The notes below the pieces were generated by a model that was not told where the DNA came from, made no database searches, and saw only the letters and a list, made by a program, of their open reading frames with translations. A program made the position numbers and the translations under genes. Below, in pieces: positions 10,723 through 49,083 of a stretch of DNA of 64,000 bases. The stretch's first letter is position 1. Each line of letters starts with the position of its first letter. Source of the DNA: Octopus vulgaris (lineage: Eukaryota); the NCBI GenBank assembly GCA_951406725.2, contig OX597829.1, positions 32,922,001-32,986,000 on the forward strand. The letters are read 5' to 3'.

Positions 10723-10761
10723 AGGCACATGAGTGGCTGTGTGGTAAGTAGCTTGCTAACC
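10723..10761 (+). mobile_element. 5' head of tRNA-derived SINE (A-box half), split from its body by the inserted array
   Basis: gagtggctgtgtggtaagtagcttgctaacc; continues at 17458 as aagtagcttgctaaccaaccacatggttccgggttcagtccc. Confidence 0.85.
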
Positions 10762-11355
10762 TCGACATGTTTTTTGGCAGCTGCCAGTTGTGAGGTGTTT
10801 CAACGTGAATTGTTGAACTTTTGACTCGACTACAGGTAAGCGTTTTGTATTTTTGGGAGCTTAGTGAAGTTTATTGCTTGCATTTAATGTTTTTAGCATT
10901 TAATATTTTTTAGCAGATAATAAACTCCACTTTGCTCCAGATATAATTTTTCTGCCTGTTGTCGAGTGTAAAGACTCACTTTGCAGTGAGAATTGTATTT
11001 TTGAAGCGGCGTAGTCCGTCTGCAAAAATTGTTTTTGAAATTGTCTTTGTGTTATCCACGGGAATTACCAAGGAGTACCAAGGATTATTTTATCAAGAAG
11101 TTTTACCAGTTGAACATTTGGCCTGGAGTACCATTTTTTGGCCGAAAAATGTGAAAAGAAAAAAACAGAAAAAATTAATTTCTTTGTGTGGATTTGAACT
11201 CTCTTCCTCCGTCTATCATTTATTTTTAAAAGAAAAAGAACTTTTTTTGAACTGCTATTTCTAATTTTGTTTCTTCCCTTCTGTTGTGTTTTTCATTCAC
11301 CTTTTTGTGTCTTATTTACTTTATTACATTTTGAACTGTTTTTAAACCTTACGTT

Positions 11356-12541
11356 ATGGCAAAGAAATTCACTGTGTGGGAATTGACACCTCCCAAAAAA
11401 TATTTGAATGAGCTAGATGAAAAACCATGGTGCTGAGGACATACTCAAAGTCGCTCGACACCATAGCAGTCTTCCCAAAGGCTACTATTTTAAACGAGCT
11501 GGCAGACTACATGCCAGCCGTTAAATATATTGCACGGGGAGTTAAATACGCAACGGTTTCGTTGCTATTTGACTCCCCTAAAGCAGCTTGCGAATTTGCA
11601 AGCCAGCCCATTGAGGGCAAACAAATATTGTTTCTCCCAAATTACAAGGGAGAAAAATTGTTGAGAGCTTGGATCTGCGGCTTACCACCAGGCGTTGAGC
11701 CCGAGTGGATAGAGGACTCTATCCGCCAGGGCTTGGATGGTAGCAGTTCCAAGCTACTGAACGTAAAAGTACAGCCTGTGGCTGATTGGGAGGGGTCAAA
11801 AGCTGTTTTGACCCTATGGACCCAGTCAGCCAAAAGTCTGGTTTTTCCGGACTTTTTGAGGATGGCCAGGTCCAAGTATCCGGTGATGTTTGAGGGACGA
11901 CCCCCAAATGTCACCTGTGCCTGGAGACCGGCCACATTAAGAAGAACTGCCCCAGGGACCAAAGTAGGATCCTGGAGAAGTTGATATCGGAACCTCTCCC
12001 TGCCCCCCAAATGGAGGGAGAGAAACAGTACGAGGAAGCGGTGACTTCCTCAACGAGAAAACGAAAAGTGGGGAACAATGGTGACCCACTAAAAGACCTG
12101 GAAGCTACGGGAGAAAGAGTGGACCCGGCGTGTGCAACACCGGAACCTCAACCTCCCGTGGTCCACAGTAAAAAGAAAAAAAGAAAGAAGAGAAACGGAA
12201 CGCTGCCAGCTGATTGTAACATGCAGACGGCATGTCCCATGTCTCCTCCGGCGCTTGTGTATCCGGAGAAATATTATGTAATCCTCTTCTACAAAGGACG
12301 AATATTAGAAAATGAAACACGTAAAATGAGGAAGAGAAGCCAATGGGAGGGACTTCGGTCCTGCATGGAGGATCCCAAGTGGCCTTTGCAGCTGGCTGCG
12401 GAGGTCCTATTCCATAACGATCGGTGCAGGATCGAGAATTCTCTCCCGGAGGAGTCCTTTCAATTTAAACCTGTATGCGGGGGCCTGACAAGGAACGATT
12501 GCGTCAATAAGGCAAGAGCGTTCATCGGCCGGGTAACGTGA
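11356..12541 (+). pseudogene. gag/ORF1p-like protein (~395 aa when repaired) with CCHC zinc knuckle; two frameshifts
   Basis: ATG 11356 (MAKKFTVWELTPPKK); joins ORFs 11427-11984 and 11981-12541; CHLCLETGHIKKNC at 11909-11950 in the -1 frame. Confidence 0.8.
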
Positions 12542-12611
12542 ACCTGTTTTTGTATTATATTGAGATAGAAGTTTATTGCCTCTGGAAACATTTTTGAATT
12601 TGTAATTTGTA

Positions 12612-12712
12612 AAATTTGGAATTTTTGTGAAATTTTGGAATTTTTGTGAAATTTTGGAATTTTTGTGAAATTTTGGAATTTTTGTGAAATTTTGGAAATT
12701 TTGTGAAATTAT
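12612..12712. repeat. 19-bp tandem repeat (aattttggaatttttgtga) x~5 in the unit A 3' UTR
   Basis: Direct periodicity. Confidence 0.9.
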
Positions 12713-12882
12713 TGAAAAAAGAACAATGTCTCAGAGAAGCGGAAGTCGGCGGGCGCTTTCGTCTTCTCCCATCACCATCTTCATTCCATCACCATCATTC
12801 ATTAATGTCTATGTCCAGCCCGTAGCTACTATCTGTGTACTGCCCTTGTGGCAAATTAAATAAAATAAAGTAGCTTCTTACC

Positions 12883-14909
12883 AGACAGACGTGTTTTTTT
12901 GGCTGCTCCAAATGTCACGTGTTGCTACGTGAATAATTGAACTTTTGTTGAACTTTTTGACTTGACAGGTAGGTGTTTTATATTTTTAGGAGCTTAGTGA
13001 GGTTTATTGCTTGCTTTTAATGTTTTTAGCATTTAATGTTATTTAGCATTAAAATTTTTTAGTAGGTAATAGACTTCACTTTGCTCCAGGTATTTTTTCC
13101 TGCCTGTTGTCGGGTATAAAGACTCACTTTGCGGTGAGAATTGTGTTTTTTGAGGAGGCGTAGCCCCTCCTCAAAAATTAATTCAAATTGGATTTACCAA
13201 GAAGCACCAAGGATATTCAAGGACTGTTTTTTTGGATATACCAAGAAGCACCAAGAGTAACCAAAGATTGTTTCGACGCTTGGCCAGGAGTACCTTTTTG
13301 GCCAAAAAATTAATTCCTTTGCCAAATTTGAACTCTCTTCCTTCCAGCTATCTTTTATTTAAAAAAGAACTCTTTTTGAACTGTCGATTTTATTGTAATT
13401 CTTCTCTTCTGTTGTGTTTTCTCTTCTCACTCTTTCTATCGCATTTATTTTTACACCTGTTGAACTTTTATTGAATTCCGTTACAAAATGGCAGAGGAAC
13501 TAGAACCTCCCAAAAAATACTTGAAGCAGCTGGAGGACAAGACCGTGGTGTTGAGGACTTATTCAAAGTCGCTCAACACCATCGCTGTTTTTCCGAAGGC
13601 AACTATCATTAACGAGCTGGCAGACTATATGCCAGCCGTTAAATACATTGCACAGGGAGTAAAATACGCAACGGTTTGGTTGCTGTTTGACTCCCCTAAA
13701 GCAGCTTGCGACTTTGCAAGCAAGCCCATTGAGGGCAAGGAGATTTTGTTTCTCCCTAACTACAAGGGTGAAAAATTGCTGAGAGCGTGGATCTGCGGCC
13801 TACCACCTGGCATTGAACCCGAGTGGATAGAGGACTCTATCCGCTGGGGTCTGGGTGGTAGCAGCGCCAAGCTCCTAAATGTGAAAATACAGCCTGCGGC
13901 TGATTGGGAGGGGTCAAAAGCCACTTTGACCCTATGGACCCAATCAGCCAAAAGTCTGGTCTTGCCGGACTTTCTGAGGATCGCCGGGTACAGGTATCCG
14001 GTGTTGCTTGAGGGACGCCCCCCCCCCCCAAGTATCACCTGTGTCTGGAGACCGGTCACATTAAGAAGAACTGCCCCAGGGACCAGAGTAGGATCCTGGA
14101 GCAGTTGATATCGGAGCCTCTCCCTGCCCCCCCATTGGAGGGAGAGAAACAGAATGAGGAAGCAAAGACTTCCTCCAAAAGAAAAAGAAAGGTGGGGAGC
14201 AATGGCGACCCACCAAAAGACCTGGAAACTGCGGGAGAAGAGAACCCGGTGTGTGCAACTCCAGAACCTCAACCTCCCGTGGCCCAAGGCAAAAAGAAGA
14301 AAAAAAAAAGAGAAACGGAACGCCGTAGGCGGATTGTGATACGCAGACGGCGTCTCCCGGGTCTTCTCAGGCAGGTGTGCCGCCTGAGGGACAATTTGTG
14401 GAAAAATTTGTGCTCCTCTTTTTCAAAGGAGGAGCGGTGGAAGATACAGTGCGTAAAATGAAAAAGAGAGGCCATTGGGAGGGACTTCAGTCCTGCACGG
14501 AGGACCCCGAGTGGCCTTCGCAGCTGGCTGCGGAGGTCATAGGGAGGGGTAATCTAGGCAGGATCGTGGGTTCCTTCCCGATGGACTCATTCCAAATTAT
14601 ACCTTTGGACCACTGCCTGACCAGTGATTATTGCCTCAGTGAGGCAAGAGCGATGGTCGGCCAGGTTACATAGGCCCATTGAACATTTTTTATTATACTG
14701 AAAAAGAGGTTTATTGCCTCTTTTAAAATTTGTAATAATTTATTGAATTTTTTTGTCAAATTTTGAACAATGTCTTAGAGAAGCGAAAGTCGGCGGGCGC
14801 TTTCGTCTTCTCCCATCACCATCTTCATCCATCACCATCATTCATTAATGTTTTTTGTCCAGCCCGCAGCTACTCTGTATACTGCCCTAGTGGCAAATTT
14901 TATGAAATA
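12883..14909 (+). mobile_element. ORF1-only retroposon, unit B
   Basis: Homologous to unit A throughout; ORF 13488-14673 frameshifted; followed by target copy aagtagcttgctaacc at 14910-14925. Confidence 0.85.
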
Positions 14910-14925
14910 AAGTAGCTTGCTAACC

Positions 14926-15324
14926 ATCGACGTGTTCGGACGTGTTTTTTGGCAGCTGCCAGCTGTCACGTCTTTCGACATGAAATGTTGAATTTTTGAA
15001 ACTCGACTACAGGTAGGCATTTGTTGAATTTTATTTAGGGGCTTAGTGAAGTTTATTGCTTTGCATTTAATAATTTTTAGCAAGTAATAGACTTCACTTT
15101 GCTCCGGACATTTTTCCTGTCTGTGGTCGAGTGTAAAGACTCACTTTGCAGTGAGAATTGTGTTTTTGAAGAGGCGTAGTCCCTCTGCAAAAATTAATGT
15201 GTTTTGAAATTGTCTTTGTGTTTTCCACTGGATTTACCTCGGAGTACCAAGGATTCTTTTTGCAAGTTGTTTTACCAGCTGGACATTTGGCCTGGAGTAC
15301 CTTTTTTTGGCCGAAAAAAGAGAA
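14926..15324 (+). mobile_element. ORF1-only retroposon, unit C (5' UTR only, ends at an internal A-rich tract)
   Basis: Matches the first ~400 nt of units A and D; followed by degenerate target aagtagctccctaact. Confidence 0.75.
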
Positions 15325-15340
15325 AAGTAGCTCCCTAACT

Positions 15341-17457
15341 GTCGCCAAAGTCGCACGTGTTTTTTTTGGCGGGGAGTTGTTGCTGTTTTAATGTCACGTC
15401 GTTCGTCATGAAATATTGAATTTTGAGGCTCGACTACAGGTAGGCATTTGTTTTATATTTTTGAGGGCTTAGTGGAGTTTTTGCTCTGTATTTAATATTT
15501 TTCAGTGAGTAATAGACTCCACTCTGCTCCGGACATTTTCCTGCCTGTAGCCGCCTTTACAGACTCACTTTGCAGTGAGAATTGTGTTTTTGGAAGAGGT
15601 GTAGTCCCTCTGCAAAAATTAATGTGCTTTGAAATTGTCGTTGTGTTTTCCACTGGCTTTACCACGGAGTACCAAGGATTCTTTTTGCAAGTTGTTTTAC
15701 CAGCTGGACATTTGGCCTGGAGTACCTTTTTTTGGGCCGAAAAAAGAAAAAAGAAAAAAAAAATTAATTCCTTTGTCTGGATTTGAACTCTCTTCTTCGA
15801 GCTATCATTTATTTTTAAAAAAAGAACTTTTTTGAACTGCTATTTCTAATTTTGTTCCTTCTCTTCTGTTGTGTTTTTCATTCTCCTTTTGGTGTCTTAC
15901 TTTATTTTATTACATTTTGAACTGTTATTGAACTTTATGTTAACATGGCAAAGGAATTTACTGTGTGGGAATTGACACCTCCCAATAAGTATTTAAAAGA
16001 GCTGGAGGAGAAGACCGTGGTTTTGAGGACTTATTCGAAGTCGCTCGACACCATAGCAGTCTTCCCAAAGGCTACCATACTGAACGAGCTGGCGGATTAC
16101 ATGCCAGCCGTTAAATTTATCGCATGGGGAGTGAAATACACAACAGTTTGGTTGCTATTTGACTCCCCAAAAGAAGCTTGCGATTTTGCAAGCCAGCCCA
16201 TTGAGGGCAAACAAATATTGTTTCTCCCAAATTACAAGGGGGAAAAATTATTGAGAGCCTGGATCTGCGGCTTACCACCCGGCGTTGAACCCGAGTGGAT
16301 AGAGGATTCTATCCGCCGGGGTCTGGACGGTAGCAGTTCCAAGCTGCTGAATGTAAAAGTACTGCCTGTGGCTGATTGGGAGGGGGCGAAAGCGGTGTTG
16401 ACCCTGTGGACCCAATCAGCCAAAAGTCTGGTTTTTCTGGATTTCTTGAGGATGGCCGGGTCCAAGTATCCGGTGATGCTTGAGGACGCCCCGCCAAGTG
16501 TCACCTGTGCCTGGAGCCTGGACATATCAAGAGGAACTGTCCCAGGGGCCGTGGTGGTGCCCCGGAGCATGAAAAGGAAAAGGTGCCCGATGCCCCCTCA
16601 TTGGAGGGGGAGACGGAAGTGGTGGAGGAAGTTGCCTCCACGAAAAGAAAAAGACAGGTGAGCAACAATGGTTGCTCACCAAAGAATGTACAGACGGAGG
16701 AGGAGGATAGCGACCCCCCGCGTCTGCCGACAGAGCCCCCCGGGCTAGCATCCTCTGAAAAAGAGGAAAAAGAGAAAAAGAGGTCGGACGGCTGATGTTT
16801 CTGGGTCGCTGACGGAGCCGCGGGTGGGACGTGTGCCACCCGCAGACAGGGCTCCGTCAGTGGGAAGTGTGCCACTGACGGATCAGTGTGAGGTCCCTTC
16901 CTATGAAGAGGAGTTGTTTATCCTCCTTTACCACAAGGGAAGAAAGGTGGAAAAATTTTTTAATGGCTTGGGTGACCGAGAACGTATGGCCAAGGTCGGC
17001 TCAAGTAGTCCGTTATGGCCTCAGCAGGTGGCTGCGGAGGTAGTAACAGAAAACATGTTATCAAGGGTCGCAGCGACCTTTGACAGGAAAGAATTTACTT
17101 TTCTCTTTGCAGGCCTCGACTTGTCGTCGCAGAGTTGTCTGCAGGCGGCAAGTCACTTTGCTTCGGGGACCTGACAGGGAGAATTGTTGTGAATTTATGT
17201 GCCGCCCTTGTGGCAAATTAAATGAAAGAAAGAGGTTAATTGCCTCATGTGAAATTTGTAAAAGTTTGAAATTTTTGAAAACAAGATTTTTGAACTTATT
17301 GAAAAAAAGAACATTGTCTTAGAGAAGCGGGGGTCGGCGGGCACTTTCGTCTTCTCCCATCACCATCTTCATTCCATCACCATCATTCATTAATGTCTAT
17401 ATCCAGCCCGCGAAGCTACTCTCTGTGTACTGCCCTTGTGGCAAATTAAATAAAATT
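15341..17457 (+). mobile_element. ORF1-only retroposon, unit D
   Basis: ORF 15945-17174 frameshifted; knuckle CHLCLEPGHIKRNC at ~16499; divergent C-terminal half; conserved 3' end. Confidence 0.85.
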
Positions 17458-17842
17458 AAGTAGCTTGCTAACCAACCACATGGTTCCGGGTTCAGTCCCA
17501 CTGCGTGGCATCTTGGGCAAGTGCGTTCTGCTATAGCCCCGGGCCGACCAATGCCTTGTGAGTGGATTTGGTAGACGGAAACTGAAAGAAGCCTGTCGTA
17601 TATATGTATATATATGTATATGCGTGTGTGTGTTTGTGTGTCTGTGTTTGTCCCCCTAGCATTGCTTGACAACCAATGCTGGTATGTTTACGTCCCCGTC
17701 ACTTAGCGGTTCGGCAAAAGAGACAGATAGAATAAATACTGGGCTTACAAAGAATAAGTTCCGGGGTCGATTTGCTCGACTAAAGGCGGTGCTCCAGCAT
17801 GGCCGCAGTCAAATGACTGAAACAAGTAAAAGAGTAAAAGAG
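17458..17842 (+). mobile_element. Body of tRNA-derived SINE (B-box half, internal (TG)n, AAAAGAGT tail)
   Basis: ggttcagtccc B-box-like motif; homologous copy at 37332-37705. Confidence 0.85.
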
Positions 17843-18405: not shown

Positions 18406-18454
<49 letters not shown>

Positions 18455-18457
<3 letters not shown>

Positions 18458-22100: not shown

Positions 22101-23022
22101 AGAAACTAGAAGTAGTTGATAGTTTCCGCTACCTGGGTGACCAAGTTAGTAGCGGAGGTGGATGCACAGAGAGTATCACCACTAGAATACGAATAGCCTG
22201 GGCAAAGTTCAGAAAGCTCCTACCCCTACTGGCAACAAAAGGTCTCTCCCTCAGAGCGAAAGGTAGATTGTATGATGCATGTGTGCGAACTGCCATGCTT
22301 CACGGTAATGAAACATGGGCTGTGACTACAGAGGACATGCGTAGACTTGAAAGAAATGAAGCTAGCATGATCCGCTGGATGTGTAGTGTCAGTGTGCACG
22401 CAAGACAGAGTGTAAGCATCCTAAGAGAAATGCTGGATATAAGAAGCATCAGATGTGGTGTGCAAGAGCGACGTTTGCGATGGTATGGTCATGTGCTGCG
22501 GATGGATGAAGAGAGATGTGTGAAGAAGTGCCACTCCCAAACAGTTGAAGGTATCAGGGGGAGAGGTAGACCCAGGAAGACATGGGATGAGGTAGTCAAG
22601 CATGACCTCAGAGCATTGGGCCTCACTGAGGCAATGGCGAAGGACCGAGATCTCTGGAGATATGCTGTGACTGCAAAGACCCGGGCTGCTTTCTGCAGCA
22701 ATTCCACATACCCCCTACCCATTCAAAGTACCCCGGATCCCCAAAGTACCCCGGACCCAGTTGCCCCCGTGCCGCTGGCACGTTAAAAGCTCGGACCGAT
22801 CGTGACCAATGCCGGACCCCCCGGCCCCTGTGCCGGTGACACGTAAAAAGCACCCAAACCACTCACGGAGTGGTTGGCGTTAGGAAGGGCATCCAGCCGT
22901 AGAAACTCTGCCAAATCAGACTGGAGCCTGGAGCGGCCCCTGGCTTCCCAGACCCCGGTCAAACCGTCCAACCCGTGCTAGCGCGGAAAACGGACGTTAA
23001 ACGATGATGATGATGATGATGA
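19130..23022 (+). mobile_element. Full-length RTE LINE with pyrimidine-rich 5' UTR, 3' UTR and (GAT)n tail
   Basis: 5' UTR shared with the copy at 63245-64000; 3' tail shared with short elements at 10495, 55325 and 57395. Confidence 0.9.
19595..22786 (+). CDS. RTE-clade LINE ORF: APE endonuclease, reverse transcriptase and PHD-like Cys/His insert; uninterrupted 1063 aa
   Basis: GTINVGTL, CIQEVRW, GGDFNGHVG, QIDFIL, FVDLEKAFDRV, GVHQGSALSP, LYADDL; CSIC..CTQC..HKRC..CGRC insert. Confidence 0.95.
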   Translation: MPRKLSPPQQPSSSQALNSPSPHISFPVFRVGTINVGTLTGKSSEIVEMLERRQVDVCCIQEVRWRGASARVLTGKALRYKLFWQGNVEGVGGVGILLAEKWVDEVIEVVRVCDRVLKLRLVLQSGTAMIISAYAPQAGLPNDQKDNFYDTLLQATSKTSSKDLIFVGGDFNGHVGRESGIFTGVHGGYGIGTRNDEGTRLLEFCDACNLSICNTNFKKPICHLITYQSGDSASQIDFILTRQRDAGLLLNTKTLPGEECIPQHRLIISDFKLEARRTPRNKPIQKRRIWRLKNPSHGQKFRNILIKKFDEREEELQTSDIEGSWEFLRDSLLSATDRVCGWCKVPSRPRITWWWNSAVDKAICKKRRAWKAWKDGGSRELYQIAKREAERQVYIAKDVAEKKKFANVQRREDQRAEVFRIARQCVRENSDVIGEKCVRMDDGALAFTASEKKEAWRSHYERLLNEENEWEEESLPNVDPVEGPATRIDSSLVDKAIKDMKPGKAPGLSGITAEMLKTAGYVGYTIVTRIVNQVVHNGAIPNDWCSSTIVNCYKGKGDALDRNNYRGIKLLDQVMKVSEKVITHLIRERICLDEMQFGFVPGRSTTDAIFLVRQLQEKYLAKDKPLYIAFVDLEKAFDRVPRSLIWWSMRKLEIEEWLIRAVQALSKVRIGNEYSEEFRVEVGVHQGSALSPLLFIIVLQAITEEFKTGCPWELLYADDLALIAESLPELEEKFRVWKQGLESKGLRINVAKTKVLVSSKRYSAHTPSGRWPCSICRKGTGRNSIRCTQCKLWTHKRCSNIKGKLTDKIAFMCGRCTGTIDTTDTQKTDSITLQGEKLEVVDSFRYLGDQVSSGGGCTESITTRIRIAWAKFRKLLPLLATKGLSLRAKGRLYDACVRTAMLHGNETWAVTTEDMRRLERNEASMIRWMCSVSVHARQSVSILREMLDIRSIRCGVQERRLRWYGHVLRMDEERCVKKCHSQTVEGIRGRGRPRKTWDEVVKHDLRALGLTEAMAKDRDLWRYAVTAKTRAAFCSNSTYPLPIQSTPDPQSTPDPVAPVPLAR

Positions 23023-27004: not shown

Positions 27005-29405
27005 TGTCCCACATTCATTGTGGTTAAAGTACAGACATGACCTATCAGAAGACTTCTATTACCAGGCCCAACTGCATCATACCTGCTTGTCTGCTGAAAA
27101 TGAATTCATTTACAACTGTGCTTTCCTTAACATAGAGAACAAGACTGTTTCTGTGGGAGGTAATACCTTACCTACATATGGGCTGCCACAATCATTGCAC
27201 CATGGGACACCTTCAATACCAACAGAGTTAATATGTGAAACGTCTTATGACACTGAAGCCCTTAATCAATACATCCAGCAAAATGAGCCCAAACTTCTGC
27301 CTGAGCAACAGTGAGCTTACAGTACCATCTTTGACCACATGCAGAAACGAAAAGGGGGTATTTTTTCTTGATGCACCTGGAGGGACTGGAAAAACGTTCG
27401 TTATTCAGCTTCTCCTTGTAAAAGTAAGGCACCGAAATGACGTAGCCGTAGCTGTGGCCTCCTCTGGCATTGCAGCAACTTTACTGCCCGGTGGCAGGAC
27501 AGTGCACTCAACCTTTAAGCTACTTTAACATCACCAAAACGTGTGAAAACGGCTTGCTTCTCCGGAGTTACCAGCTGATAATTTGGAATGAATGCACAAT
27601 GGCCCACAAGCGATCCCTTGAAGCTCTCAACACCACTCTTGAAGACATCAGAGACTGTCCCGCTATGATGGGTGGTATAACTCTTCTCCTGTCTGGCAAT
27701 TTCCCAAAGGAACCAGGGAAGATGTAATCAGGGCCTGCCTAAAGTCCTCACCCCTGTAGCAAATGTTACAACATTATCTCTCAAAACAAACATGAGAGCA
27801 CAGCTTCGTGGTGACCAGATGGCATCAGATTTTGCATATGACATATTGTCAATCGGACAGAAAACAGAAAACTGTCACTAACTCACCTCTGATGTATTAT
27901 CAGTAATTCCAATGAACTAGAGGCACATGTCTTCCCAAATCTACAAAGGAACTACCTTGACATGAATTGGATTTCAGAAAGAGCCATTTTGGCTCCAAAA
28001 AACAACACAGTGGCCACTCTCAATGCTAAGCTGCTGCTTTTGCTTCCGAGAAGGCTGCACATGTATGGGTCAATCAATTCTGTACCCGACAATGACCAGG
28101 CAGTGAGCTATCCAGTGGAGTTTCTTAATTCCCTTGACTCACATGGCCTGCCTCCTCATACACTGGAAGTAAAAGTCGGAGCTCCTGTCATGCTGCTGAG
28201 GAATTTAGACCTTCCAAAGCTTTGCAATGGGACACACTTGGTTATTAAGAAGGCTATGCAGTTTGACCCTATGGACCCAATCAGCCGAAAGTCTGGCTTT
28301 TCCAGATTTTTTGAGGATGGCCGGGTCTAGGTATCTGGTGATGCTCGAGGGATGCCCACCCCCAAGTGTCACCTGTGCCTAGAAACCAGCCACATCAAGA
28401 AAAACTGCCCCAATGACCAAAATAGGGTCCTGGAGCAGTTAATAGAGGCATCACTCCCTGCTCCCTCATTGGAGGGAGAGGAGGAGGAGGATGTCGAGGA
28501 GGTGGAAACCTCCTCAAAAAAACGAAAGTGAAAGGTGGGCAACAATGGTTGCCCACCAAAAGACCCGAGGGCTGCGGGAGGAAGGGAGAACCTGCTGGAC
28601 ACAGCAAAGAAACACCACCCTCCCACGGCCCAAGGGAAAAAGAAAAAAGAAAAACAGGAGATTGCCAGCAGTTTGTGACATGCTGCCAGCATATCCCGAT
28701 GCTTCTTCAGTGGATGAGCCGCTGCAGGAGGAATTTGTTGTCCTCTTCCATAAGGGAGGGACATTGCAAAATGCTATTAGTAAAATTGAAAGGAAGGGCC
28801 GGTGGGGCTTCTGTCCCGCATAGAGGACCCTGAGTGGCCTTTGCAGGTGGCTGCGGAGGTCATATGAGATAACGATTTGTGCAGGATAATGAATTCCTTC
28901 CCAGCGGACTCTTTTAGATATATGGCCAAGGCTTGGAACCGACTAGATGCTTCAATGAAGCAAGGAGCCTGGCCGGACAGAAAAATTGAAATGTGGGACA
29001 ATTGTGTAAGAAGTGTATTACCTCAAAATATTTTGTTGAATATATAAAGTAAGATGATTATTGCCTCATGTGTGCTCCTGTACCTACTGAACTGTGAAAG
29101 AGGTTTATTGCCTCATTTTGTGATTCTAAAAAAGAACAATGTTTTAGAGAAGCGAAAGTCGGCGGGCGCTTTACATCTTCTCCCATTCTCATCATCCTTG
29201 TATCATTATCATTCATTCCATTAATGTCTGTGTCCAGCTCGCAAACTTCTTTGTGCGCTACCCTTGTGGCAAATTTAATAAAATAAAGAAGGCTATGCAG
29301 TACGTTCATGAAGTCACCATTTTGTCTGGCTGTGGCAAAGGAGAGGACATTTTCATCCCCAGAATCCCCCTCATTCTATCTGGTGCAGATGTTCCCTTTG
29401 CATTT
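27005..29405 (+). pseudogene. Helitron PIF1-type helicase remnant, interrupted at 28263-29285
   Basis: FFLDAPGGTGKTF, VASSGIAATLLPGGRT, WISERAILAPKN, VMLLRNLDLPKLCNGT; resumes after the TSD with TILSGCGKGEDIFIPRIP. Confidence 0.85.
28263..29285 (+). mobile_element. 5'-truncated ORF1-only retroposon, unit G, with 16-bp TSD
   Basis: aagaaggctatgcagt at 28247-28262 and 29286-29301; starts mid-ORF; conserved 3' end and A-rich tail. Confidence 0.9.
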
Positions 29406-31075: not shown

Positions 31076-33473
31076 TCAATATCTATAAATCTGAAATGCG
31101 AAAAGTTTGTCTCATTTTGGCATTGGAATGGGTTAAGGGGCACTAGATGGGGTCAGACTGACTCCAAAATTTACAGGACATGTAAAATGAGGTGAGGATG
31201 CGAGTGGGCTAGGTTAGAAATCCCTATCCTAAAAGGTGTGGTTAGAAGGGCAAAAAAAGCACACTTTGACAAGTCTTTCATATATGACCTTTTCTTCCTC
31301 CGTCTCTCTCTCTCTCTCTTTCCTACCTTCCTTTCACGTTCTCTCTATAACGTTGTTTGATAGCATCTGTTACTCTTTCTTCCACCACCCCTCTCACTGT
31401 ATGATTGTCGTTTCTTTGGCTAACTGCCTGTCTTCCTCTGTCTCTCTCTCTTTCCCCTTCCCTCCACTTTCTCTCTCTATAACAACGTTTGACACCTCCG
31501 CCATCTCTCTTTCATCTCCACCACCTCTCTCAATGTATTTATGTTTGTATCTATAAAGACAAAACGTGACAGCCGCAGAAGTTTAAATATTCCCACCACA
31601 GGTCTTTCAGAAAGGTGAATTATCTCCCACCACCACCACCACACAATTATAACAGATATTATTTATCAGAAGATGTTATTATTTTGCGTGGATAAAAGAT
31701 TTGCTGAGCTAAGAAACATTATACCCTTTTAAAGAATTTATTTGTATGCTTAAGCTGACCGTCGTTAACAAAAATTTGTCGGTAAATTTGAAAAATTTTC
31801 CAGTTTTGAAATATTTACTTCTTAACTATTTCATTCGTTTTCTCATTGTAAACCAAATCATCTTTAGGTTTCAAAATATTTTATTTTTCAGTCCTGTCTT
31901 TCATATATCCCCTTTTCTTCCTCGATCTCTCTCTTTTCCCCCTTCCCTTCAAATTCTTTCTATAACTATGTTTGACAGCTTCGCCGTCTCTCTTTTACTC
32001 TTTCTTCCACCACCCCTCTCACTGTATGATTGTCGTTTCTTTGGCTAACGGCCTGTCTTCCTCCGTCTCTCTCTCTTTCCTCCTTCCCTCTACTTTCTTC
32101 TCCATCGCCTCTCTCAATGTATTTATGTTTGTATCTATAAAGACGAAATGTGACAGATGCAAAAGTTTACATATTCCTACCACAGGTCTTTCAGAAAGGT
32201 GAATTATTATCTCCCACCACCACCGCACAATTATAACAGATATTATCTATCAGAAGATATGCTGTTATTTTGCGTGAATAAAAGATTTGCTGTGCTAAGA
32301 AGCATTATACCTTTTAAAGAATTTATTTGTATGCTCAAGGCGACCGTCGTTAACAATAATTTGTTGGAAACGCCTGAAATATGCAATGGAACCCAAATGG
32401 TTATAAGGAGGATTCAAAGCCATGTTATAACTGCTGAAATTTTGAGTGGACCATTCATAGGAACAATGAAGATGATACATAAAATGAGTATTTCACCCTC
32501 TGATGTTCCCATTCAGTTTAAACGCTATCAATTTCTGATAAAACTATGCTTCGCGATGACAATCAACAAGTCACAGGGACAATCACTGGACATTGTAGGC
32601 GTTAACCTGTCACAACCGGTCTTCAGTCATGGTCAATTGTACGTAGCCTGTTCTCGAGTTGGAAATCCGCATAACCTCTTCATTCTTGGCGATCATGAGC
32701 GCACAAGGAACGTAGTTTATCAGGAGGCTCTGACAAAACAAGATTGATTGTAAGTCATGAGATTTTGCTCGAGTTTTTCTTCTGCACGTCTTGATTACCT
32801 CTTCATTCTTGAAAATAAAGACATTAAAAAGAACATGGTTCATAAAGAAGATTGGTTTAAGATTTTTGCAAACATTTGATCCAACTCATTCGTCTCTTTA
32901 TTCCTCATTTTCCAATTCCTTCTACATCTCCATTGAATGGTTTTGTCAATTGTTTCTTCGCCAACATAAGACATTCATAAAGTGAATGAGTTGTTAATTA
33001 CATTTTATACACTGTTCCATTGTTTAGGTGGTGTCGAAAGGACTGGCATATAACCATATAACCATATAACCTCTGTGAGTCAAACTCTCAACTCATGTAT
33101 CCACATCGCGATACTCTTTCTACAAAACTGAGCTGGGTGTGAATTCTAATTTCAAACATTATTGCAGATGTGAGTTTACAGTCTGCCTTTTTTGGTTTAA
33201 ACTATCTTCCTGCAGGTTAAAAAACATTTTTTTTTTTAGAGTCCTCAACAATATTCGCCACTGAAATTCCATTTTTCAATTTTATGATTATACCCAGAGT
33301 GCTCTAAACGAATATGAACTGTCTTCCCATTGGAGGACGTTTGTCTTTTTTTTTTTTTTTAGAACTAAACGCATTGCCTCTTTCGTTTTAAAACAATAAA
33401 ACAATGCTACATTAATACATTGGTCCAACGACCAAAACATCACCCGTGCATAAAGCGGGTCACATTAAGCTAG
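31076..33473 (+). mobile_element. Internally deleted Helitron (5' end, internal duplication, helicase C-terminus, 3' hairpin and CTAG)
   Basis: 5' tcaatatctataaa as at 49084; 32365-33473 nearly identical to 47974-49080; acccg..cgggt hairpin then CTAG|T. Confidence 0.9.
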
Positions 33474-34540
33474 TCTTTCTATAAAATGAGAAGTTACATT
33501 GTGGAACTGGTATTTTAATGAGTTGTATCTATTTATCATCCGATAAGATACATCTGCCCCACCGGATGCTCCTGAACCACTCGTTGAATGTCCCACCCAA
33601 GAGGGATCGATGCTTGATGTGTCGAAACAATTGTCATGATTAATAAATTCTTGTATATTCCATTTTCCGTCTTTCATTTGCCAAATATGTCATACATGTA
33701 GTGACTGACAACAGAATGTTATAGTCTAGTCTTACTGCATGTCCTGACAATATATATCTAGCTTGCCTACAAAAGTGTAAGAGGGCCATTGAGGTTTGCG
33801 TGGTGATCAGGGAAGAGGACAGAGTTGTGTAAGCGACAAATATGAAGTGGGGACGGAACATTAATGTTGTCATTCAAAGATACACACACACACTTTCAAT
33901 CTCTTTCTATCTTGTGTCTCTTTTTGTCTGCCACTCTCAGTCTGTTTGCCTCTCTCTCACTCTGTCTCTCTGTAACACACGCACATACACACACACTCAC
34001 AAATCTATAAATAAATATGTGATGTTTAAACTGGAAATAACCAAAGTATTCCTTTGTTCTATTTATGAACACACGATAAAAAAGTTATCATCTTCTAAAT
34101 ACTTAGAGTCAAATCACTTTCCTTTTCAGGAAGACGTTTCAAGTCAACATTGAAGGTGAAGTACCTTATTAATTTCGTTTTTATTATTTACAAAATTATA
34201 CTCACTCATTCATCTATCTATCTCTCTGTCTATGGAAGTGCTGTCACTTCGACTCCGAAGGTAATCGTTTATTTTGACTATTTATAGCCCAATTTTTGTG
34301 TACATTTTTGTAAATAAGTTGTGTAAGGCACCCAACTTTCGTTTGAGTGCTTTTCCAAGGGAGGAATTCGCCCCTAGGGGCAGTTTCAACCCTATTTAAT
34401 TTTTGTAATTTCTTTCTAGACATTTTCAAAATGTCTAGAAATTGTATTGTAGAACGATGGTCACGTTCCTTTATCGACCAGCTTAGTATCTTTAAACTAA
34501 AGGTGAACTCCCTTACAGAATTTATTGAAAAATATTCAAC

Positions 34541-34578
34541 AGGCTCAGGAGTGCCTGTGTGGTAAGAAGCTTGCTTCC
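34541..34578 (+). mobile_element. 5' head of a second tRNA-derived SINE copy, split by insertions
   Basis: aggctcaggagtgcctgtgtggtaagaagcttgctt; body resumes at 37332. Confidence 0.85.
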
Positions 34579-36348
34579 GGTTCTGGTTGTTAGTTGTTCT
34601 TCACTCGCCTGTTGAAGTCGCCACGCTGGTGTGCAGCTGGCGAAAATTGAAGTGAAGTCGTCACGCTGGTGTGCAGCTGGCGAAAACTGAAAGACGCTCT
34701 ACTGTAAGGTAAGACTTTTTGCTCCGTGAGTCCAGTAGGATTTGTTGCTTGTAGGTTTATTTTTTTGTACTAGCAAGAAGTCCTTATGGATTCGGAGCTT
34801 TTTGTCTGCCTTGCGGTGGAGATATGTATTTTCTCACATAATTGTGAGAAATTATTTTTGAAAATGTTTGTGCCCATGTGGATTACAAGGATAGGCCAGA
34901 AGTACCTTTTCGGCCAAAAATTAATTTCTTTGCCAGGATTTGAACTCTCTTTCCACACTATCATTTATTTTAAAAAAAAGAACTTTATTTGAACTGTTAT
35001 ATTTTATTTCTTCCCTTCTGTTGTGTCTTTCCTTCTTTTTTTGTGTCTTTCTTTATTTTACACTTTGAACTGTATTTGAACATTTTTAAATGGCAAAGGA
35101 ATTACTTGTGTGGGATTTAACACCTCCCAAAAAATGGATGAAAGAGCTCGAAAGGAAGACGGTGGTGTTGAGGACTTATTCTAAGTCACTCGACACCATA
35201 ACTGTCTTCCCGAAGGCCACAATTTTGAAGGAGCTGGCAGAGTACATGCCAGCCATTAAATTCATTTCACAGGGAGTCAAGTATGCAACGGTCTGGTTAC
35301 TATTTGACTCCCCCAAGAAGCTTGCGATTTTGCAAGCCGGCCCCCTGAGGGCAAGGAAATCATGTTCCTTCCCAGCTATTGTGGAAAGAAGTTATTGAAG
35401 GCTTGGGTCTGCGGTTTGCCACCCGGAATTGAGCCTGAGTGGATAGAGGATTCTATCCACTGGGGTCTGGGTAGTAGCAGTACCAAGCTGCTTAATGTGA
35501 AAATTTTGTCTGCGGCTGATTGGGAGGGGTCAAAAGCTGTTTTGACCCTATGGACCCAAACAGCTGAAAGTCTGGTCTTTCCAGATTTTTTGAGGATGGT
35601 CGGGTCTAGGTACCCAGTGATGCTTAAGGGACTCCCCCACCAAGTGTCATCTGTGTCTGGAGAGCAGTCACATTAAGAAAAACTGCCCCAAGGACCAAAA
35701 TAGGATCCTGGAGCAGTTAATAGTGGAATCTCTCCCTGCTCCCTCAATGGAGGGAGAGAAGGAGGAGGATGATGAGGAGGTTTCCACATCCTCAAAAAAA
35801 CAAAAGAGGTGGGCAACAATGGTTGCCCACCGAAGGACCTGAGGGCTGCAGGAGAAAAGGAGGACCTGCTGCACGCATCACAGGAACCCCACCCTCCCGC
35901 GGCCCAAGGGAAAAAGAAAAGAAAGAAGAAAAACGGGACATTGCCGGCGGGTTGTGACACGCTGCCAGCATGTCCCAATTCTCCTCCGGCGGGTGTGCCG
36001 CTGGAGGATGAATTTGTGGTCCTCTTCCACAAAGGAGGAACTGTACAAAATGAAATTAAGAAAATGGAAAGGAGGGACCGGTGGGAGGGGCTTCTGTCCT
36101 GCACGGAGGACCCTGAGTGGGCTTTGCAGGTAGCTGCGGAGGTCCTATGGGATAGTGATCTGTGCAGGATCATGAAATCCTTCCCAGAGAACTCCTATAG
36201 ATTTGTGTCTGTGTGGCCCGGCCTGGAACCAGGTAGATGCTTCAGTGTAGCAAGGAGCCTGGTTGGCCGGAAAACTCGTATCATTCATCCCATTAATGTC
36301 CGCAAGCTTCTATCTGTGTGATGCCCTTGTGGCAAATTGAATGAAATA
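34579..36348 (+). mobile_element. ORF1-only retroposon, unit E (second subfamily; 3' UTR partly deleted)
   Basis: ORF from 35090 (MAKELLVWDLTPPKK), frameshifted; CHLCLESSHIKKNC at ~35645; ends cccttgtggcaaatt..aaataa then target copy at 36349-36362. Confidence 0.85.
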
Positions 36349-36362
36349 AAGAAGCTTGCTTC

Positions 36363-37331
36363 TGGTTCCGGTTGTTAGTCGTTCTTCACTTGACTGCTGA
36401 AGTCGTCACGCTGGTGTGCAGTGGAAGAAAATTGAATTTGTAAGACACTCTACCGTAAGGTAAGACTTTTTGCTCTTTGAGTCCAGTAGGATTTGTTGCC
36501 TGTAGGTTTTATGTTTTGTACAAGCAAGGAGTCCTTACTGGAAAAAACAAAAACAAAAGGTGGGCAACAATGGTTGCCCACCAAAGGACCTGAGGGCTGC
36601 AGGAGGAAGGGAAAACCTGCTGGACGCAGCAAAGGAACACCACCCTCCTGCAGTCCAAGGGGAAAAGAAAAGAAAAAAGAAAAATGGGACATTGCCGGCA
36701 GTTTGTGACACGCTGCTGGCATGTCCCAATGCTTCTTTGGCAGATGAGCCGCTGGAGGAGGAATTTGTTGTCCTCTTCCATAAGTGATGGACATTACAAA
36801 ATGTGATTAGAAAAATTGAAAGGAAGGGCCGGTGGGAGGGGTTTCTGTCCCGCATGGAGGACCCTGAGTGGCCTTCGCAGGTGGCTGCGGAGGTCATATG
36901 GGATAACGATCTGTGCAGGATAATGAATTCCTTCCCAGTGGACTCCTTTAGATATATGGCCAAGTGGTCTGGCTTGGAACCGACTAGATGCTTCAATGAA
37001 GCGAGGAACCTGGCCGGACAGAAAAATTGAAATGTGGGACAATGGTATAAGCGGTGTATTACCTCAAAAAGACTCTGTAAAATGTAAAAAGTTAGAGGAT
37101 TATTGCCTTGTGTGTGGTTTTCATTCTGAACTATGTAAGAGGTTTATCACCTCATTGTGTGTTTAAAAAAGAAAAAAGAACAATGTTTTAGAGAAGCGAA
37201 AGTTGGCAGGCGCTTTTCATCTTCTCCCATCCTTATCATCCTTGTATCATTATCATTCATCCCATTAATGTCTGTGTCCAGCCCACAAGCTTCTCTCTGT
37301 GTGCTGCCCTTGTGGAAAATTTAATAAAATA
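36363..37331 (+). mobile_element. ORF1-only retroposon, unit F (internally deleted near 36540)
   Basis: 5' end like unit E, 3' half close to unit G; followed by target copy at 37332-37344. Confidence 0.85.
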
Positions 37332-37705
37332 AAGAAGCTTGCTTACCAGCCACATGGTTCCTGGGTTCAGTCCAACTACGTGGCACCTTGGGCAAGTGTT
37401 TTCTACTATAGCTTCAAGCCTTCAAGCTGACCAAAGCCTTGTGAGTGGATTTGGTAGATGGAAAGAAGCTCGTCGTATATATGTGTGTGTGTGTGCGTGT
37501 TTGTGTGTCTGTGTTTGTCCACCCCACCAACATCACTTGACATCCAATGCTGGTGTGGTTACATCTCCGTAACTTAGAGGTTCAGCAAAAAGAGGCCAAT
37601 AGAATAAATACTAGGCTTACAAAGAATAAGTATTGGAGTCAATCTGCTTGACTAAAAGATGGTGCTCCAGCATAGCGGCAGTCAAATAAAAGAATAAAAG
37701 AATAA
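37332..37705 (+). mobile_element. Body of the second tRNA-derived SINE
   Basis: Homologous to 17458-17842. Confidence 0.85.
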
Positions 37706-37842
37706 ATTACATGAATTTATTAATTCATTCCTTTCATAAAGTCATGGGTGATGGTAACTGTATGTTCAGAGCTGTGTCACTCTAGCTCAAAAACAACAGA
37801 AATTACCAAACTCTTTGGGAAGAGTCTGTACGATACATATGC

Positions 37843-43936: not shown

Positions 43937-45139
43937 TTCACTTCTTTAAAAAGGTTTCTCAATGTCAACTTCCATTATTGACATAGCAACAGCAAAGTTT
44001 TCTGTTTTCTGTTTTCATTTGCAAAATCTCTCACTCTCTATTTTAATGTTTTCATTTCAAGTTTTAATGCACTATTTGCAAACAACTATGATTAGTTACT
44101 GAAAGAACATTTACTAAGTTCACAAATTTGAATATTTGGTTCAAGATAGTCTTTACAAGCTTTTGTTTATATGATTTTTTTTCATTTCATGTTTATTTCA
44201 TTCATTGTTTGCAATGTTCTCTCTCCCTCTCTTTCTCACAAACACACACACAAGTCAGTTACACACTCACACGTGTTTTTGTATGTACATTTGTATATAT
44301 TCATGTATGTGCATGTGCTAGCGTGAAAGAGAGAAGGGCTATGTTGTCCTGTATACATACATTTTTTTTGTACGTGTGTGTGTGCGTGCATCTGTATGAG
44401 ACAGGGAGAGAGTGATGTCTAAGTGGCATCCTCTCTCTGTCACACACACACACAAAAAAAAAAGATGTATGCATATTTATGTCTGTACGTATACATGACA
44501 ACACACCCCTTCTATCTCTCTCACACACGTGTCCATGTCATCTGTTGTTTGATACTCTGTGCGCGTGTGCACATGTGTGTGTGTGTGTGTGCATGCGTGG
44601 GGCATTCCACAATCTCCATTTATTTCAATCACTAGTGTGATGATATTCATGTAACTCATCTTTTCATTTAATCCCCATTTTAATTTTCGAAAAAATTTCC
44701 GAGAACAATGTTCTTGCTCTCTGCAACAGGAGTCGGGATAGATGAAGATGATTAGTATTCTACAGTGAAGCAAAGACAATTCTGCAACTCTGTTAACTCT
44801 ATTAAGTATGTTTGCAAATATATAAACAAAGGTTTAGATGCTGCAACATACACTCTTATGCAGAATGGCAGGCAGGAAATAAATAAAAATTACAAAGATG
44901 CACAGTGTAACAAGTAGCCATTTTAGCCATTTTTGAAATAAAGCGCAAATTGGCAATATGACGTAATGTCGTATTGCCGAAGGATTATTATTTTCGTTTT
45001 TTCCATTGGTTAATATAACTGCTCATAAAGATTCTAAAAAGTTACGTAAAGAATATTTGTAATGGATTCTTTTAAGTCAAGTTGCTCAGTTATAAAAACC
45101 CTGGATTTGGGGAAAACTTTAGTGTTTGTTGGATGAAGA

Positions 45140-48100
45140 CGTGACTTTTGTTTCAAAATACACCGATGTTATGATTGCTTGCAGTACCCTCTCCTTTTTC
45201 CTCATGGAGAGGATGGATACCACTTAAAAATTAAAAAGGTTGATCCCACAATTTTCACACTTCTTGACAAGGTTTCCTGCAAGACATTTTACGCCTATCG
45301 ACTCATGATGAGAGAAAACGAGTTTAATTTATTACTAAGGTGCCATTCTTTGACCAATCAGTTTTTTGTCAACATGTATTGTAAAGTTGAGTCTGAACGT
45401 TTAAAATACATTCGTTCTCACCAGGACCAATTGAGAGCGACAGAATACGTTAATCTAGAGGATGCAATACGGCAAGACAGTGATGCAGCCAACGTTGGAA
45501 AGCGTATTATTCTCCCTTCAACATTTCTTGGCTCACCTCGGTATATGTATAAACGAATGCAGGACGCAATGGCATATCTCGGTAAGTTTGGAAAGCCGGA
45601 TCTCTTCATTACATTTACCTGCAATCCTACCTGGCCAGAGATTAAAGAGAATGTGTTCGCTGGCCAGCTGCCAGAGCACAGATATGACATCTGTGGTGCG
45701 CGTTTTTCATGCCAAGTTGATGAAAATGCTGTTTTTACTGAAGGTTGTGCATATTTTTGGCCCACTGTCTGCTTGGATGTATACTGTGGAATGGCTGAAG
45801 AGAGGTCTTCCACACATTCATAAGCTAGCCTGGTGCCAGGATAGAATCCACCCTGCTGATATTGACAAAATTATATCTGCTGAGTTGCCTGATCCAAATG
45901 CTGATCCTCAGCTGCACAGCAGTGTTACAAAGCATATGATTCACGGTCCATGTGGTGACCTTAATCCAATAAGTTCATGCATGAAGAATAAAAGATGTTC
46001 GAAGCGGTACCCTAGAGACTATTGTGGTCAAACCTGCACTACGAATGACGGCTATCCCATCTACCGAAGACATGACCCAGGTTTTGGTGGCCGGAGAGCT
46101 AGAGTTAGACACCGGTTAATAACATTCAATGCTGATAATACCTGGATTGTTCTATTCAACAAGTACATTAATAAGGGCGATGATATGGCCGTGTTTGTGT
46201 TCAGTGATGAAGACCTTAGATATGACGAGATTAAACAATTCGTTTTGGGTAGGTATGTATCCTCCAATTATGCAGTGTGGCACATTTTTGGATACGAGAT
46301 TCATCTAAGCTCACCATCAGTTGATGAGTTTGCTGCTACTTTCATTTACCCTGAAGTACCGGAATATTACATATACAACAACAATAATTGGAAGCGCAGG
46401 TCACATGGAACAGAACTTGACAATTGGCCCGGTGTTTCTAGGAAGAATGTCATTGGGCGTGTGTATAATATTCATCCTACCAAACAGGAAATCTTCTTTT
46501 TGAGAATGCTGCTTCATGTAGTTACTGGACCGAAGTCTTTTGCTGATCTTCGCATGGTTGATGGTGTCATCTGCGACACTTACAAGGAAGTATGTTTGAG
46601 GCAAGTACTACTTCTCAATGATGAGCACTTACACAGGACACTGGCAGAGGCCTCAAATTGTAAACTGCCATGGCAAATGTGTTGATTGTTTTGTAGCATA
46701 TTAATCCACTGTAATACCAGCAACCCTCTTAACCTTTGGGAATCATTCAGACAGAGCCTATCAAAGGACATACAGGCTAATTTAGCACTACGTGATGGCA
46801 ACGACGATGTTTATAATGAGGCATCAATTCGACATGGACAGACACATCAGATGTTATGTTATACGCGGTTTAAGTGAATTCCATCTGCCAACACCGGTCC
46901 ATCATGAAGCGCCTTTGGATGTTGAATACATGTCGGAAAAAAACTACAACATTGCCAAATTGACGGAAACGATTACGCAAGATGAACCAAGACTTTTGCC
47001 TGAACAAAGAAAGATTTATAATGAAATTCTTGACAGCGTTAGATTGAACCAAGGAAAGCTTTTCTTTTTGAATGCTCCAGGTGGTACAGGTAAAACTTTC
47101 CTTATCAATTTGATTCTCGCAAAACTGCGCGCTGAACGTCGAAGTGCCATTGCATGTGCCTCCAGTGGTTTTGTGGCAACACTGCTTCAAGGCGGCCGTA
47201 CGGCACATTGTGCATTCAAATTGCCCATGGACATTGGAAAAAAAGATAATCCTATATGTAATATAGATCGTAGTTCCTCAAGAGCAAGACTTCTTCATGA
47301 ATGCAGTCTTTTTATTTGGGATGAGGCTACAATGAGTAATAAGGCCATGTTTGAGGCTCTTGACAGAACCCTCCAAGAATTGCGTCACGATACAAGAATA
47401 ATGGGTGGAGCTACGTTTCTCATGGCAGGAGATTTTTGACAAACTCTTCCTGTTGTCCAAAGAGGCACTCGAGCCGATGAGATTAATGCATGTATAAAGC
47501 ATTCTTATGTGTGGCACAGTATAATCAGTCGTCATCTTGAAACAAACATGGGAGTCCACCTACAAGGTGATGTGGAGTCTGAGGCTTTCGCAAAACAGCT
47601 ATTAGATCTTGGTGATGGAGTTTTGCCTTTGGTTGATGAGCATATTCGGTTGCCTTTTGGGAATTTCGTTCCAAATGTAGAAGACCTTATAAGAGCCGTT
47701 TTACCTGACGTCAAAACCAACTTCCAGGATCTTGATTGGCTGAGGACGAGAGCTATTCTATCGTCTCATAATACAACAGCTGATGCTACTAATAAACAAG
47801 CGCTTGATATGATTCCTGGAGAGGAAGTTTCTTTCATGTCCATCGATACAAATAAAGATGAGAATGATGCAGTCAAATATCCACCCAAGCTACTCAACAA
47901 GCTAACACCTCCAGGGCTTCCACCTCATCATTTTTGTTTGAAAGTTGGTGCTCCAATCATGGTGCTCAGAAACATGGAAACGCCTGAAATATGCAATGGA
48001 ACCCAAATGGTTATAAGGAGGATTCAAAGCCATGTTATAACTGCTGAAATTTTGAGTGGACCATTCATAGGAACAATGAAGATGATACATAAAATGAGTA

Positions 48101-49080
48101 TTTCACCCTCTGATGTTCCCATTCAGTTTAAACGCTATCAATTTCCGATAAAACTATGCTTCGCGATGACAATCAACAAGTCACAGGGACAATCACTGGA
48201 CATTGTAGGCATTAACCTGTCACAACCGGTCTTCAGTCATGGTCAATTGTACGTAGCCTGTTCTCAAGTTGGAAATCCGCATAACCTCTTCATTCTTGGC
48301 GATCATGAGCGCACAAAGAACGTGGTTTATCAGGAGGCTCTGACAAAACAAGATTGATTGTAAGTCATGAGATTTTGCTTGAGTTTTTCTTCTGCACGTC
48401 TTGATTACCTCTTCATTCTTGAAAATAAAGACATTAAAAAGAACATGGTTCATAAAGAAGATTGGTTTAAGGTTTTTGCAAACATTTGATCCAACTCATT
48501 CGTCTCTTTATTCCTCATTTTCCAATTCCTTCTACGCCTCCATTGAACGGTTTTGTCAAGTTATTGTTTCTTCGCCAACATAAGACATTCATAAAATGAA
48601 TGAGTTGTTAATTACATTTTATACACTGTTCCATTGTTTAGGTGGTGTCGAAAGGACTGGCATGTGTCACCATATAACCTCTGTGAGTCAAACTCCCAAC
48701 TCATGCATCCACATCACGATACTCTTTCTACAAAACTGAGCTGGGTGTGAATTCTAATTTCAAACACTATTGCAGATGTGAGTTTACAGTCTGCCTTTTT
48801 TGGTTTAAGCTATCTTCCTGCATGTTAAAATACTTCTTTTTATTTTAAGAGTCCTCAACAATATTTGCCTCCGAAATTCCATTTTTCAATTTTATGATTA
48901 TACCCAGAGTGCTCTAATCAAATATGAACTGTCTTCCCATTGGCGGACATTTGTCTTTTTTTTTTTTAGAAATAAACGCATTGCCTCTTTCATTTTAAAA
49001 CAATAAAACGATGCTACATTAATACATTGGTCCAACAACCAAAACATCACCCGTGCGTAGAGCGGGTCGCCTTAAGCTAG
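45140..49080 (+). mobile_element. Helitron RepHel remnant with intact 3' end
   Basis: LQYPLLFPHGEDG, GKPDLFITFTCNPTW, VEWLKRGLPHIH, HMIHGPCG, NAPGGTGKTF, FAMTINKSQGQS; hairpin and CTAG at 49049-49080. Confidence 0.95.
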
Positions 49081-49083
49081 TCA

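Follow-up and report, generated by a model that had tools for sequence, protein, structure and literature searches.

The stretch of Octopus vulgaris DNA analysed here, 64 kb in length and hereafter called the window (contig OX597829.1 of assembly GCA_951406725.2, positions 32,922,001 to 32,986,000, forward strand), contains a copy of an abundant host repeat, which we take to be an octopus short interspersed element (SINE), whose head is parted from its body by two foreign units, E (1.77 kb) and F (0.97 kb). These units are broken copies of a long interspersed element (LINE) of ~2 kb that encodes open reading frame 1 (ORF1) only; they lie head-to-tail inside the SINE head, and 13-bp duplications bound them both. 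E and F are likely to be two successive insertions of this ORF1-only derivative of L1/Tx1 type, copied in trans by a 5.45-kb autonomous relative via target-primed reverse transcription. Insertion would occur at GGT^AAG[T/A]AGCTTGCT in the SINE head, and since each insertion duplicates the site, the arrays grow.

The window has exactly three copies of the junction repeat, the 13-mer AAGAAGCTTGCTT, starting at 34564, 36349 and 37332, the positions given in an earlier note on this DNA, which described a second SINE copy interrupted by E and F at the position homologous to that of a first array (Table 1). The same note began the SINE body at 37332; the body does resume after F, but its true start is 37345, and 37332-37344 is the duplication. 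Once the insertions are taken out, the two host SINEs can be aligned with their cuts at the same position, and their bodies share 77.5% identity. E and F are 84% alike, and at their 5' ends 86%; their deletions differ, F having lost ~1 kb internally and E ~0.25-0.3 kb of its 3' untranslated region (3'UTR); the order in which the two inserted is not readable from the junctions. It was also correctly noted that the 5' end of E and F is unlike that of the first array, blastn finding no match to it in the 5' ends of first-array units A, B, C1 and C2. Three of these units (A, B and C2) share 76-78% identity with E across the ORF region; in the ORF1 tree E clusters with the AAGA-targeting copies L031 and L113. 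Those first-array units that retain a 3' end carry the motif AGCTACT, which fits their target. Unit G (28262-29285 without its duplications) is a 5'-truncated relative, 86% identical to F, that lies off-target inside a presumed Helitron-like helicase remnant; its 15-bp duplication also begins AAGAAG. A match to AAGAAGCTTGCGA within ORF1 (35315 and 16171) is coding sequence and no junction, and false duplication calls arising from it were discarded.

Table 1. Features of the E/F array and of the related insertions in the window
Feature	Position	Strand	Detail or basis
Host SINE 5' head, AAGAAG variant	34541..34563	+	blastn against the first array's head, 34541-34575, 88.6%
Junction repeat AAGAAGCTTGCTT, 5' copy	34564..34576	+	
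Unit E, ORF1-only non-autonomous LINE	34577..36348	+	5' end complete, 3'UTR internally deleted
ORF1 remnant of E, frameshifted	35090..36276	+	tblastn with the intact 399-aa relative L109; two frames matched
CX2CX4HX4C zinc knuckle codons in E	35645..35686	+	read off the sequence
E 3'UTR motif GCAAGCTTCT	36302..36311	+	exact reverse complement of target AGAAGCTTGC
E terminal stem-loop TGCC-CTTGT-GGCA	36322..36334	+	then a short A-rich tail without poly(A)
Junction repeat, middle copy, E-F boundary	36349..36361	+	
Unit F, same family as E	36362..37331	+	5' 181 bases fused to the 3'-terminal ~790 bases
F 3'UTR antisense motif CAAGCTTCT	37286..37294	+	predicted pairing with read-through target, probability ~0.8
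F terminal stem-loop	37305..37317	+	1 mismatch
Junction repeat, 3' copy	37332..37344	+	
Host SINE body	37345..37706	+	77.5% to the first array's SINE
Unit G including duplications	28247..29300	+	15-bp duplication AAGAAGGCTATGCAG at 28247 and 29286
First array, 4 AAGT-type units in an AAGTAG-variant SINE	10746..17470	+	

Intact relatives of E and F are two-ended, ~2 kb in length and encode a single protein of 399 aa (ORF1), with no ORF2. The weak match of these ORF1 proteins to PF00098 (E 0.004) is below the cut-off, and the sole database relative of the passenger protein, at 60%, is from Octopus sinensis. The copies have no long terminal repeats and terminate in a small stem-loop, in which 95% of the aligned cells are paired and one pair has changed on both sides, followed by a GAAATA tail. 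Many copies of 50-1000 bases are 5'-truncated, and at two-ended loci the duplications match over 8-20 bases, with 13-18 the usual length where the copy is truncated or off-target. These duplications, truncations and ends are the marks of target-primed reverse transcription. Additional ORF1-only families (L267-L274), with other ORF1 sequences and no 3'UTR motif of the kind described below, occupy the same AAGA site, which suggests that passengers arose independently several times. Elsewhere there are a few identical copies, in tandem or duplicated (e.g. L076-L078). Four copies on the opposite strand (L064, L072, L073, L191) have a 3' junction that, read backwards, looks like a SINE head followed by the target, a side effect of the antisense stem. 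L133 and L136 are preceded by long ORFs that resemble ORF2 but come from unrelated LINEs lying outside the SINE head. A young copy is represented in contigs from runs presumed to be RNA, and two of these contigs span a tandem junction; such contigs prove neither transcription nor RNA ends.

A search of the 2.8-Gb genome by junction alone returned 591 AAGT-type and 138 AAGA-type exact sites. Inspection of 30 AAGT-type and 70 AAGA-type junctions revealed a full-length LINE of 5.45 kb (L257/L259) that shares the passengers' site, terminal stem-loop and GAAATA tail. Its ORF1 has a CCHC motif, and its ORF2 combines an APE endonuclease (PF03372, E 2e-12), a reverse transcriptase (RT; PF00078, E 4.5e-28) and zf-RVT (PF13966, E 2.5e-9); its best solved relative is human L1 ORF2p (E 9e-11). 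With APE, RT and the C-terminal zinc domain all present, its sequence assigns it to the L1 group. We presume it to be of Tx1 type, from its CCHC ORF1 and target specificity; no Tx1-named protein appeared among the best 120 of its 608 homologues. About 80 copies of the endonuclease are 95-100% identical, several of them in open frames of 1140-1150 aa. Its ORF1 is homologous to that of the passenger (27% identity over 195 aa, E 1e-20), so that E, F and their relatives have an ORF1 akin to that of an autonomous LINE, no ORF2 and a 3' tail in common with an autonomous partner. This element is probably the helper that moves the passengers in trans, an arrangement that we take to work like that of HAL1, descent not being implied. 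In a set partly chosen by target, 33 of 41 helper 3' ends enter the SINE body, 6 are at target-like junctions and 2 are off-target. Three young helper copies stand ~5.45 kb apart at G000:C9:2664551-2679055, a tandem array of full-length elements. There is also a distant family (L337, L339, L340), with an endonuclease 62-65% identical and the same tail type but no antisense motif, which inserts at AAGAAAT outside the SINE. The window itself holds a fragment of an APE endonuclease of similar type (55571-55972, PF03372, E 0.029).

The SINE is present in the genome as ~95,000 exact heads, of which 84,927 read AAGT and 9,745 read AAGA (10.3%), the two variants differing at position +4 of the duplication. 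AAGA SINEs are the older, with a median divergence of 13.8% (n=25) versus 5.9% (n=65) for AAGT SINEs. What we take to be an A-box-like stretch in the head and a B-box-like stretch in the body are separated by the insertion. A possible tRNA origin of the head found no match, ARAGORN detecting no tRNA in the window and Rfam no tRNA match at E<=10 for one intact SINE copy.

Targeting of this site is recurrent. At loci not chosen by their target, 133 of 195 3' ends enter the SINE body, 39 are at target-like junctions and 23 are off-target (in this set three 'G/A' rows, L007, L046 and L059, are parsing errors, the ratio 70:1 was used, and at most 4 mis-registered rows were skipped). Recurrent independent targeting and a preference of subfamilies for SINE variants, both proposed in the earlier note, are borne out by these ends and by the genome-wide cross-table. 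After the tail of the young helper the genome reads AAGT 104 times and AAGA not once (P 1.2e-5 versus the 10.3% AAGA share), and after that of subfamily 2a, a young ORF1-only lineage with a divergence of ~1.6% (a cluster of 30 including 6 sister copies), it reads AAGA 37 times and AAGT once. Subfamilies do differ in preference, and the difference hinges on a single base, +4 of the duplication. One 2a fragment (L358:1-160) is flanked upstream by 35 bases of an AAGT-type SINE and downstream by a junction of AAGA type, for which RNA-templated read-through and later recombination are both possible origins. Two AAGT-type copies (L062, L086) lie at AACTAGCTT, just ahead of the head of an apparently different SINE, and may represent one duplicated event.

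That the junction repeat follows the target and not the element, as first noted for E and F, holds at 3' junctions and in 5'-truncated copies; at 13 of 57 two-ended loci the two copies of the duplication have private mutations in common. In full-length copies, by contrast, the target dictates no more than the first ~8-10 bases of the 5' junction, and the element itself brings the remainder: the match to the 3' copy often ends at base 8-10, and the 5'-junction variants recur at unrelated loci having the same element 5' end. Thus C at position 9 is found in 14 of 43 full-length 5' junctions and in none of 114 empty or 3' sites, part of which had been chosen by exact pattern, and 8 of 16 E-like 5' junctions read AAGAAGCTTGCTTCCGGTT, the host SINE's own continuation being GCTTACC. 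By these sequences full-length copies bring the distal half of the 5' junction along, and therefore the RNA probably begins within target-derived sequence. An excess of 3'-junction changes toward consensus (10 vs 2) was set aside, as several loci had been chosen by exact 3' pattern. GGTAAG, which resembles a splice donor, occurs at 34708-34713 and at the equivalent position in other units and in the helper, 80-130 bases downstream of the start of the 5'UTR in passengers and helper alike. The AAGT target, too, spells GGTAAGT, presumably a donor consensus; an unspliced intron or a link to U1 is possible.

The 3' ends carry a second signature of the target. About 45 bases before its 3' end, E has a motif that is antisense to the target and switches with the target variant. 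The helper motif, ~75 bases upstream of the 3' end, terminates in ACC, which complements the GGT that precedes the cut. Among 130 candidate ends examined first, 70 had motif-T at AAGA, 35 had motif-A at AAGT, 2 were discordant and 23 were other or unreadable. In the final set of 269, all 37 informative helper ends are concordant (17 + 20; 0 discordant, 4 other), as are 155 of 161 informative ends of ORF1-only copies other than 2a (91 + 64; 6 discordant, of which L133 and L172 are parsing errors, and 15 other); leaving 2a aside, motif and target thus agree in 192 of the 198 informative ends. Subfamily 2a, which carries the AAGT-matching motif yet inserts at AAGA, is discordant in 27 of 28, and 24 ends have no clear motif. 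In 38 hand-picked ends, 95.5% of the cells pair in a model of the motif-to-read-through stem plus the terminal hairpin, and the +4 pair shows double changes in 16 of the 38, counted as sequences and not as events. A swap of the +4 base lowers the predicted pairing of AAGA passengers from 0.69 to 0.42, and the helpers are also changed. A helper tree with the variable base masked gives 3 coupled switches of motif and target, weakly supported, and on the ORF1 tree the motif must have changed 6 times and the target 8 times, although some of its rows may join an ORF to the wrong 3' end (e.g. L208, L220, L270) and L172 enters twice. The co-variation is strong, and on these trees repeated origin is probable though unproven.

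These observations could be joined as follows. The endonuclease would nick a loose T^AAG(A/T) site, and a transcript that reads through the downstream duplication would anneal to the nicked strand, for which its first 4-6 bases would have to match. The 3'UTR motif would pair with the read-through as a stem, adapting after a lineage has changed its target, and the target-like 5' end would anneal to the top strand and so complete integration or second-strand joining. Shared flanks and two-ended copies without a duplication were sought and not seen, and a same-site helper exists.

A tandem arrangement could have arisen by segmental or tandem duplication of one insertion, as in the identical copies seen elsewhere (L076-L078), and the earlier note had named shared flanks outside the SINE as the sign of it. 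The 3 kb on each side of both arrays have no mutual blastn match at E<=0.01, and therefore the two arrays are not one segmental duplication; with SINE copies only 77.5% alike and E and F 84% alike with different deletions, this explanation is refuted for the E/F locus and we give it practically no weight. The preference for +4 might instead reflect timing, AAGA elements having moved when only AAGA SINEs existed and AAGT elements now hitting the commoner variant. The greater age of AAGA SINEs and the excess of AAGT heads accord with this, and timing may contribute for copies of the age of E and F (~5%). Timing alone fails because the young helper (104:0) and the young 2a (1:37) choose oppositely; moreover AAGT SINEs (5.9%) predate 2a (~1.6%), and +4 is kept at 20 of 23 off-target sites. 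As the whole explanation it is very unlikely.

What fixes the +4 base is therefore a matter of RNA or of protein. Our tentative preference is for annealing of the read-through. The 23 off-target sites match target positions 1-6 in 22, 20, 21, 20, 17 and 10 cases, and beyond these at about the level of chance. Several points weigh against this preference. The off-target finder demanded most of the tail plus AAG, which biases positions 1-3 though not position 4, and ~3 of the 23 sites are decayed or mis-registered SINEs; in AAGT-type ORF1-only ends the +4 swap barely alters predicted pairing (0.57 to 0.53); 5 of 37 helper-tree branches are starred, so that a single origin is compatible with the tree; independent pairs on the ORF1 tree number 4 concordant, 0 discordant and 1 uninformative (p 0.125); and the read-through RNA is hypothetical, an endonuclease that reads +4 explaining the same junctions. 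Such an endonuclease is nearly as likely. Successive helper lineages would have altered its +4 specificity, ORF1-only families would follow the helper that binds them, and the antisense stem would be secondary, serving 3' end handling and tracking the flank. Target choice in Tx1 elements is held, in the portion of the source used here, to be set mainly by the endonuclease (PMC4494074); the helper motif and target types follow helper lineages, the motif-less families L267-L274 use the site, and the distant motif-less family still inserts at AAGAAAT. Against a choice by protein alone stands the youth of 2a, whose copies are 95-98% alike versus 92-95% in AAGA-type helper families (nearest-neighbour medians 0.995 and 0.935; best pairwise values 97-98% versus 93-95%). 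No AAGA-type helper as young as 2a was found among the 70 of 138 AAGA junctions inspected, and a degenerate pattern for AAGA-type helper tails had no match. Since 2a is more alike than any AAGA helper found, it may have used an AAGT-type helper, and this age gap is the genomic hint of a choice set by RNA. The ages come from 95-150 bases and 2a was sampled from best hits, and a young AAGA-type helper may have been missed, which would remove the hint. The internal motif might, alternatively, act as a guide and select the site by pairing with the top DNA strand of the target, either by itself or in a swap with the read-through stem. It co-varies with the target outside 2a, and the ACC of the helper motif complements a GGT that is absent from the read-through RNA; the helper motif pairs with the intact target more stably, by 2-4 kcal/mol, than with the read-through, although shuffled controls gain about as much. 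Yet the target does not follow the motif in every lineage: 2a has the 'wrong' motif at 37 of 38 sites genome-wide (27 of 28 ends), and motif-less families are on target. The motif as a strict guide was rejected, and as determinant of +4 it is largely refuted and improbable.

The annealing of a read-through admits a further, rather doubtful, extension in which target choice is inherited via RNA. The read-through of a master copy, held in a stem by the antisense motif, would swap strands with the nicked SINE, and one helper protein would send its passengers to different variants. If so, the memory of the landing site would reside in the element's RNA, and retargeting at single-base resolution could come about by RNA change alone.

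Portions of several published accounts allow comparison with known systems. In crocodilians, Tx1-Mar LINEs and SINEU insert in Mariner-N4_AMi, with tandem copies around a 16-bp duplication (PMC4494074). The octopus system likewise unites a LINE with a non-autonomous passenger at a fixed site in an abundant mobile element, with tandem copies and family-specific site preference; it differs in having a SINE as host and a passenger with its own ORF1, in a preference for one base within one site, and in an antisense motif that tracks this preference. Tx1 of Xenopus laevis, which inserts in Tx1D, is like the octopus helper an APE-type LINE that targets another transposon, but the host element is a different one and variant-specific subfamilies do not figure in the part of the account used (PMC4494074). 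HAL1, HeT-A and Ag-Sponge resemble the passenger in having a 5' part with ORF1 and a 3' tail, no ORF2, and movement in trans; the ORF1-only LINEs of that portion have L1, Jockey and CR1 origins, none being a sequence-specific one that rides a SINE-targeting helper (PMC5786205). In R1Bm and SART1Bm (PMC7265360) and in the L1 snap-velcro model (PMC3649969) a target-like RNA 3' end anneals to the nicked strand, as proposed here. For L1 priming ~4 terminal matches suffice, a rule that the octopus off-target profile at positions 1-6 resembles (PMC3649969). Their motifs are sense to the target, whereas the octopus internal motif is antisense and the read-through varies by subfamily. The R2 SIDE and R2/R1 SIDE elements are, like the passengers, site-specific non-autonomous deletion derivatives, and they are processed out of transcripts shared with the flanking target; they differ in their rDNA target and ribozyme 5' end, and in having no ORF (PMC3414825). 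For Octopus vulgaris itself, 13 recently active L1-Tx1 families have been reported, in an account whose portion used here does not mention 'target' (PMC13282606). A literature search that left subscription journals, Repbase and supplements outside its scope returned no report of the octopus system or of a target-tracking antisense 3'UTR motif, and consensus lists of Repbase type may already contain these families. The habit is known; the SINE host, the ORF1-only passengers, the single-base subfamily preference, the antisense stem and the element-borne 5' junction set this case apart and suit it to weighing RNA against protein in target choice.

The system offers a natural experiment on APE-type site-specific LINEs, in which the share of the endonuclease in target choice can be set against that of RNA-DNA pairing. 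It provides hundreds of insertions, variants one base apart, several switches, passengers with a matching, a mismatching or no motif, and a young helper with an open ORF2. A LINE lineage here tracks the turnover of the SINE that serves as its safe landing pad, and the insertions mark SINE copies whose promoter halves are split.

The window contains other repeats. An open LINE-like frame of 1071 aa at 19571-22786, with endonuclease and RT motifs, is unrelated to the SINE-targeting family. Remnants at 27893-29400, 32154-32747 and 45137-48357 are presumably of Helitron-like replication and PIF1 helicase genes, and one at 8305-9060 we take to be of a Mariner-like transposase. The segments 32365-33475 and 47975-49082 are 95% identical, and at 62089-63248 a 340-bp unit, related to 18446-19154, is repeated 3.4 times at 99% identity.

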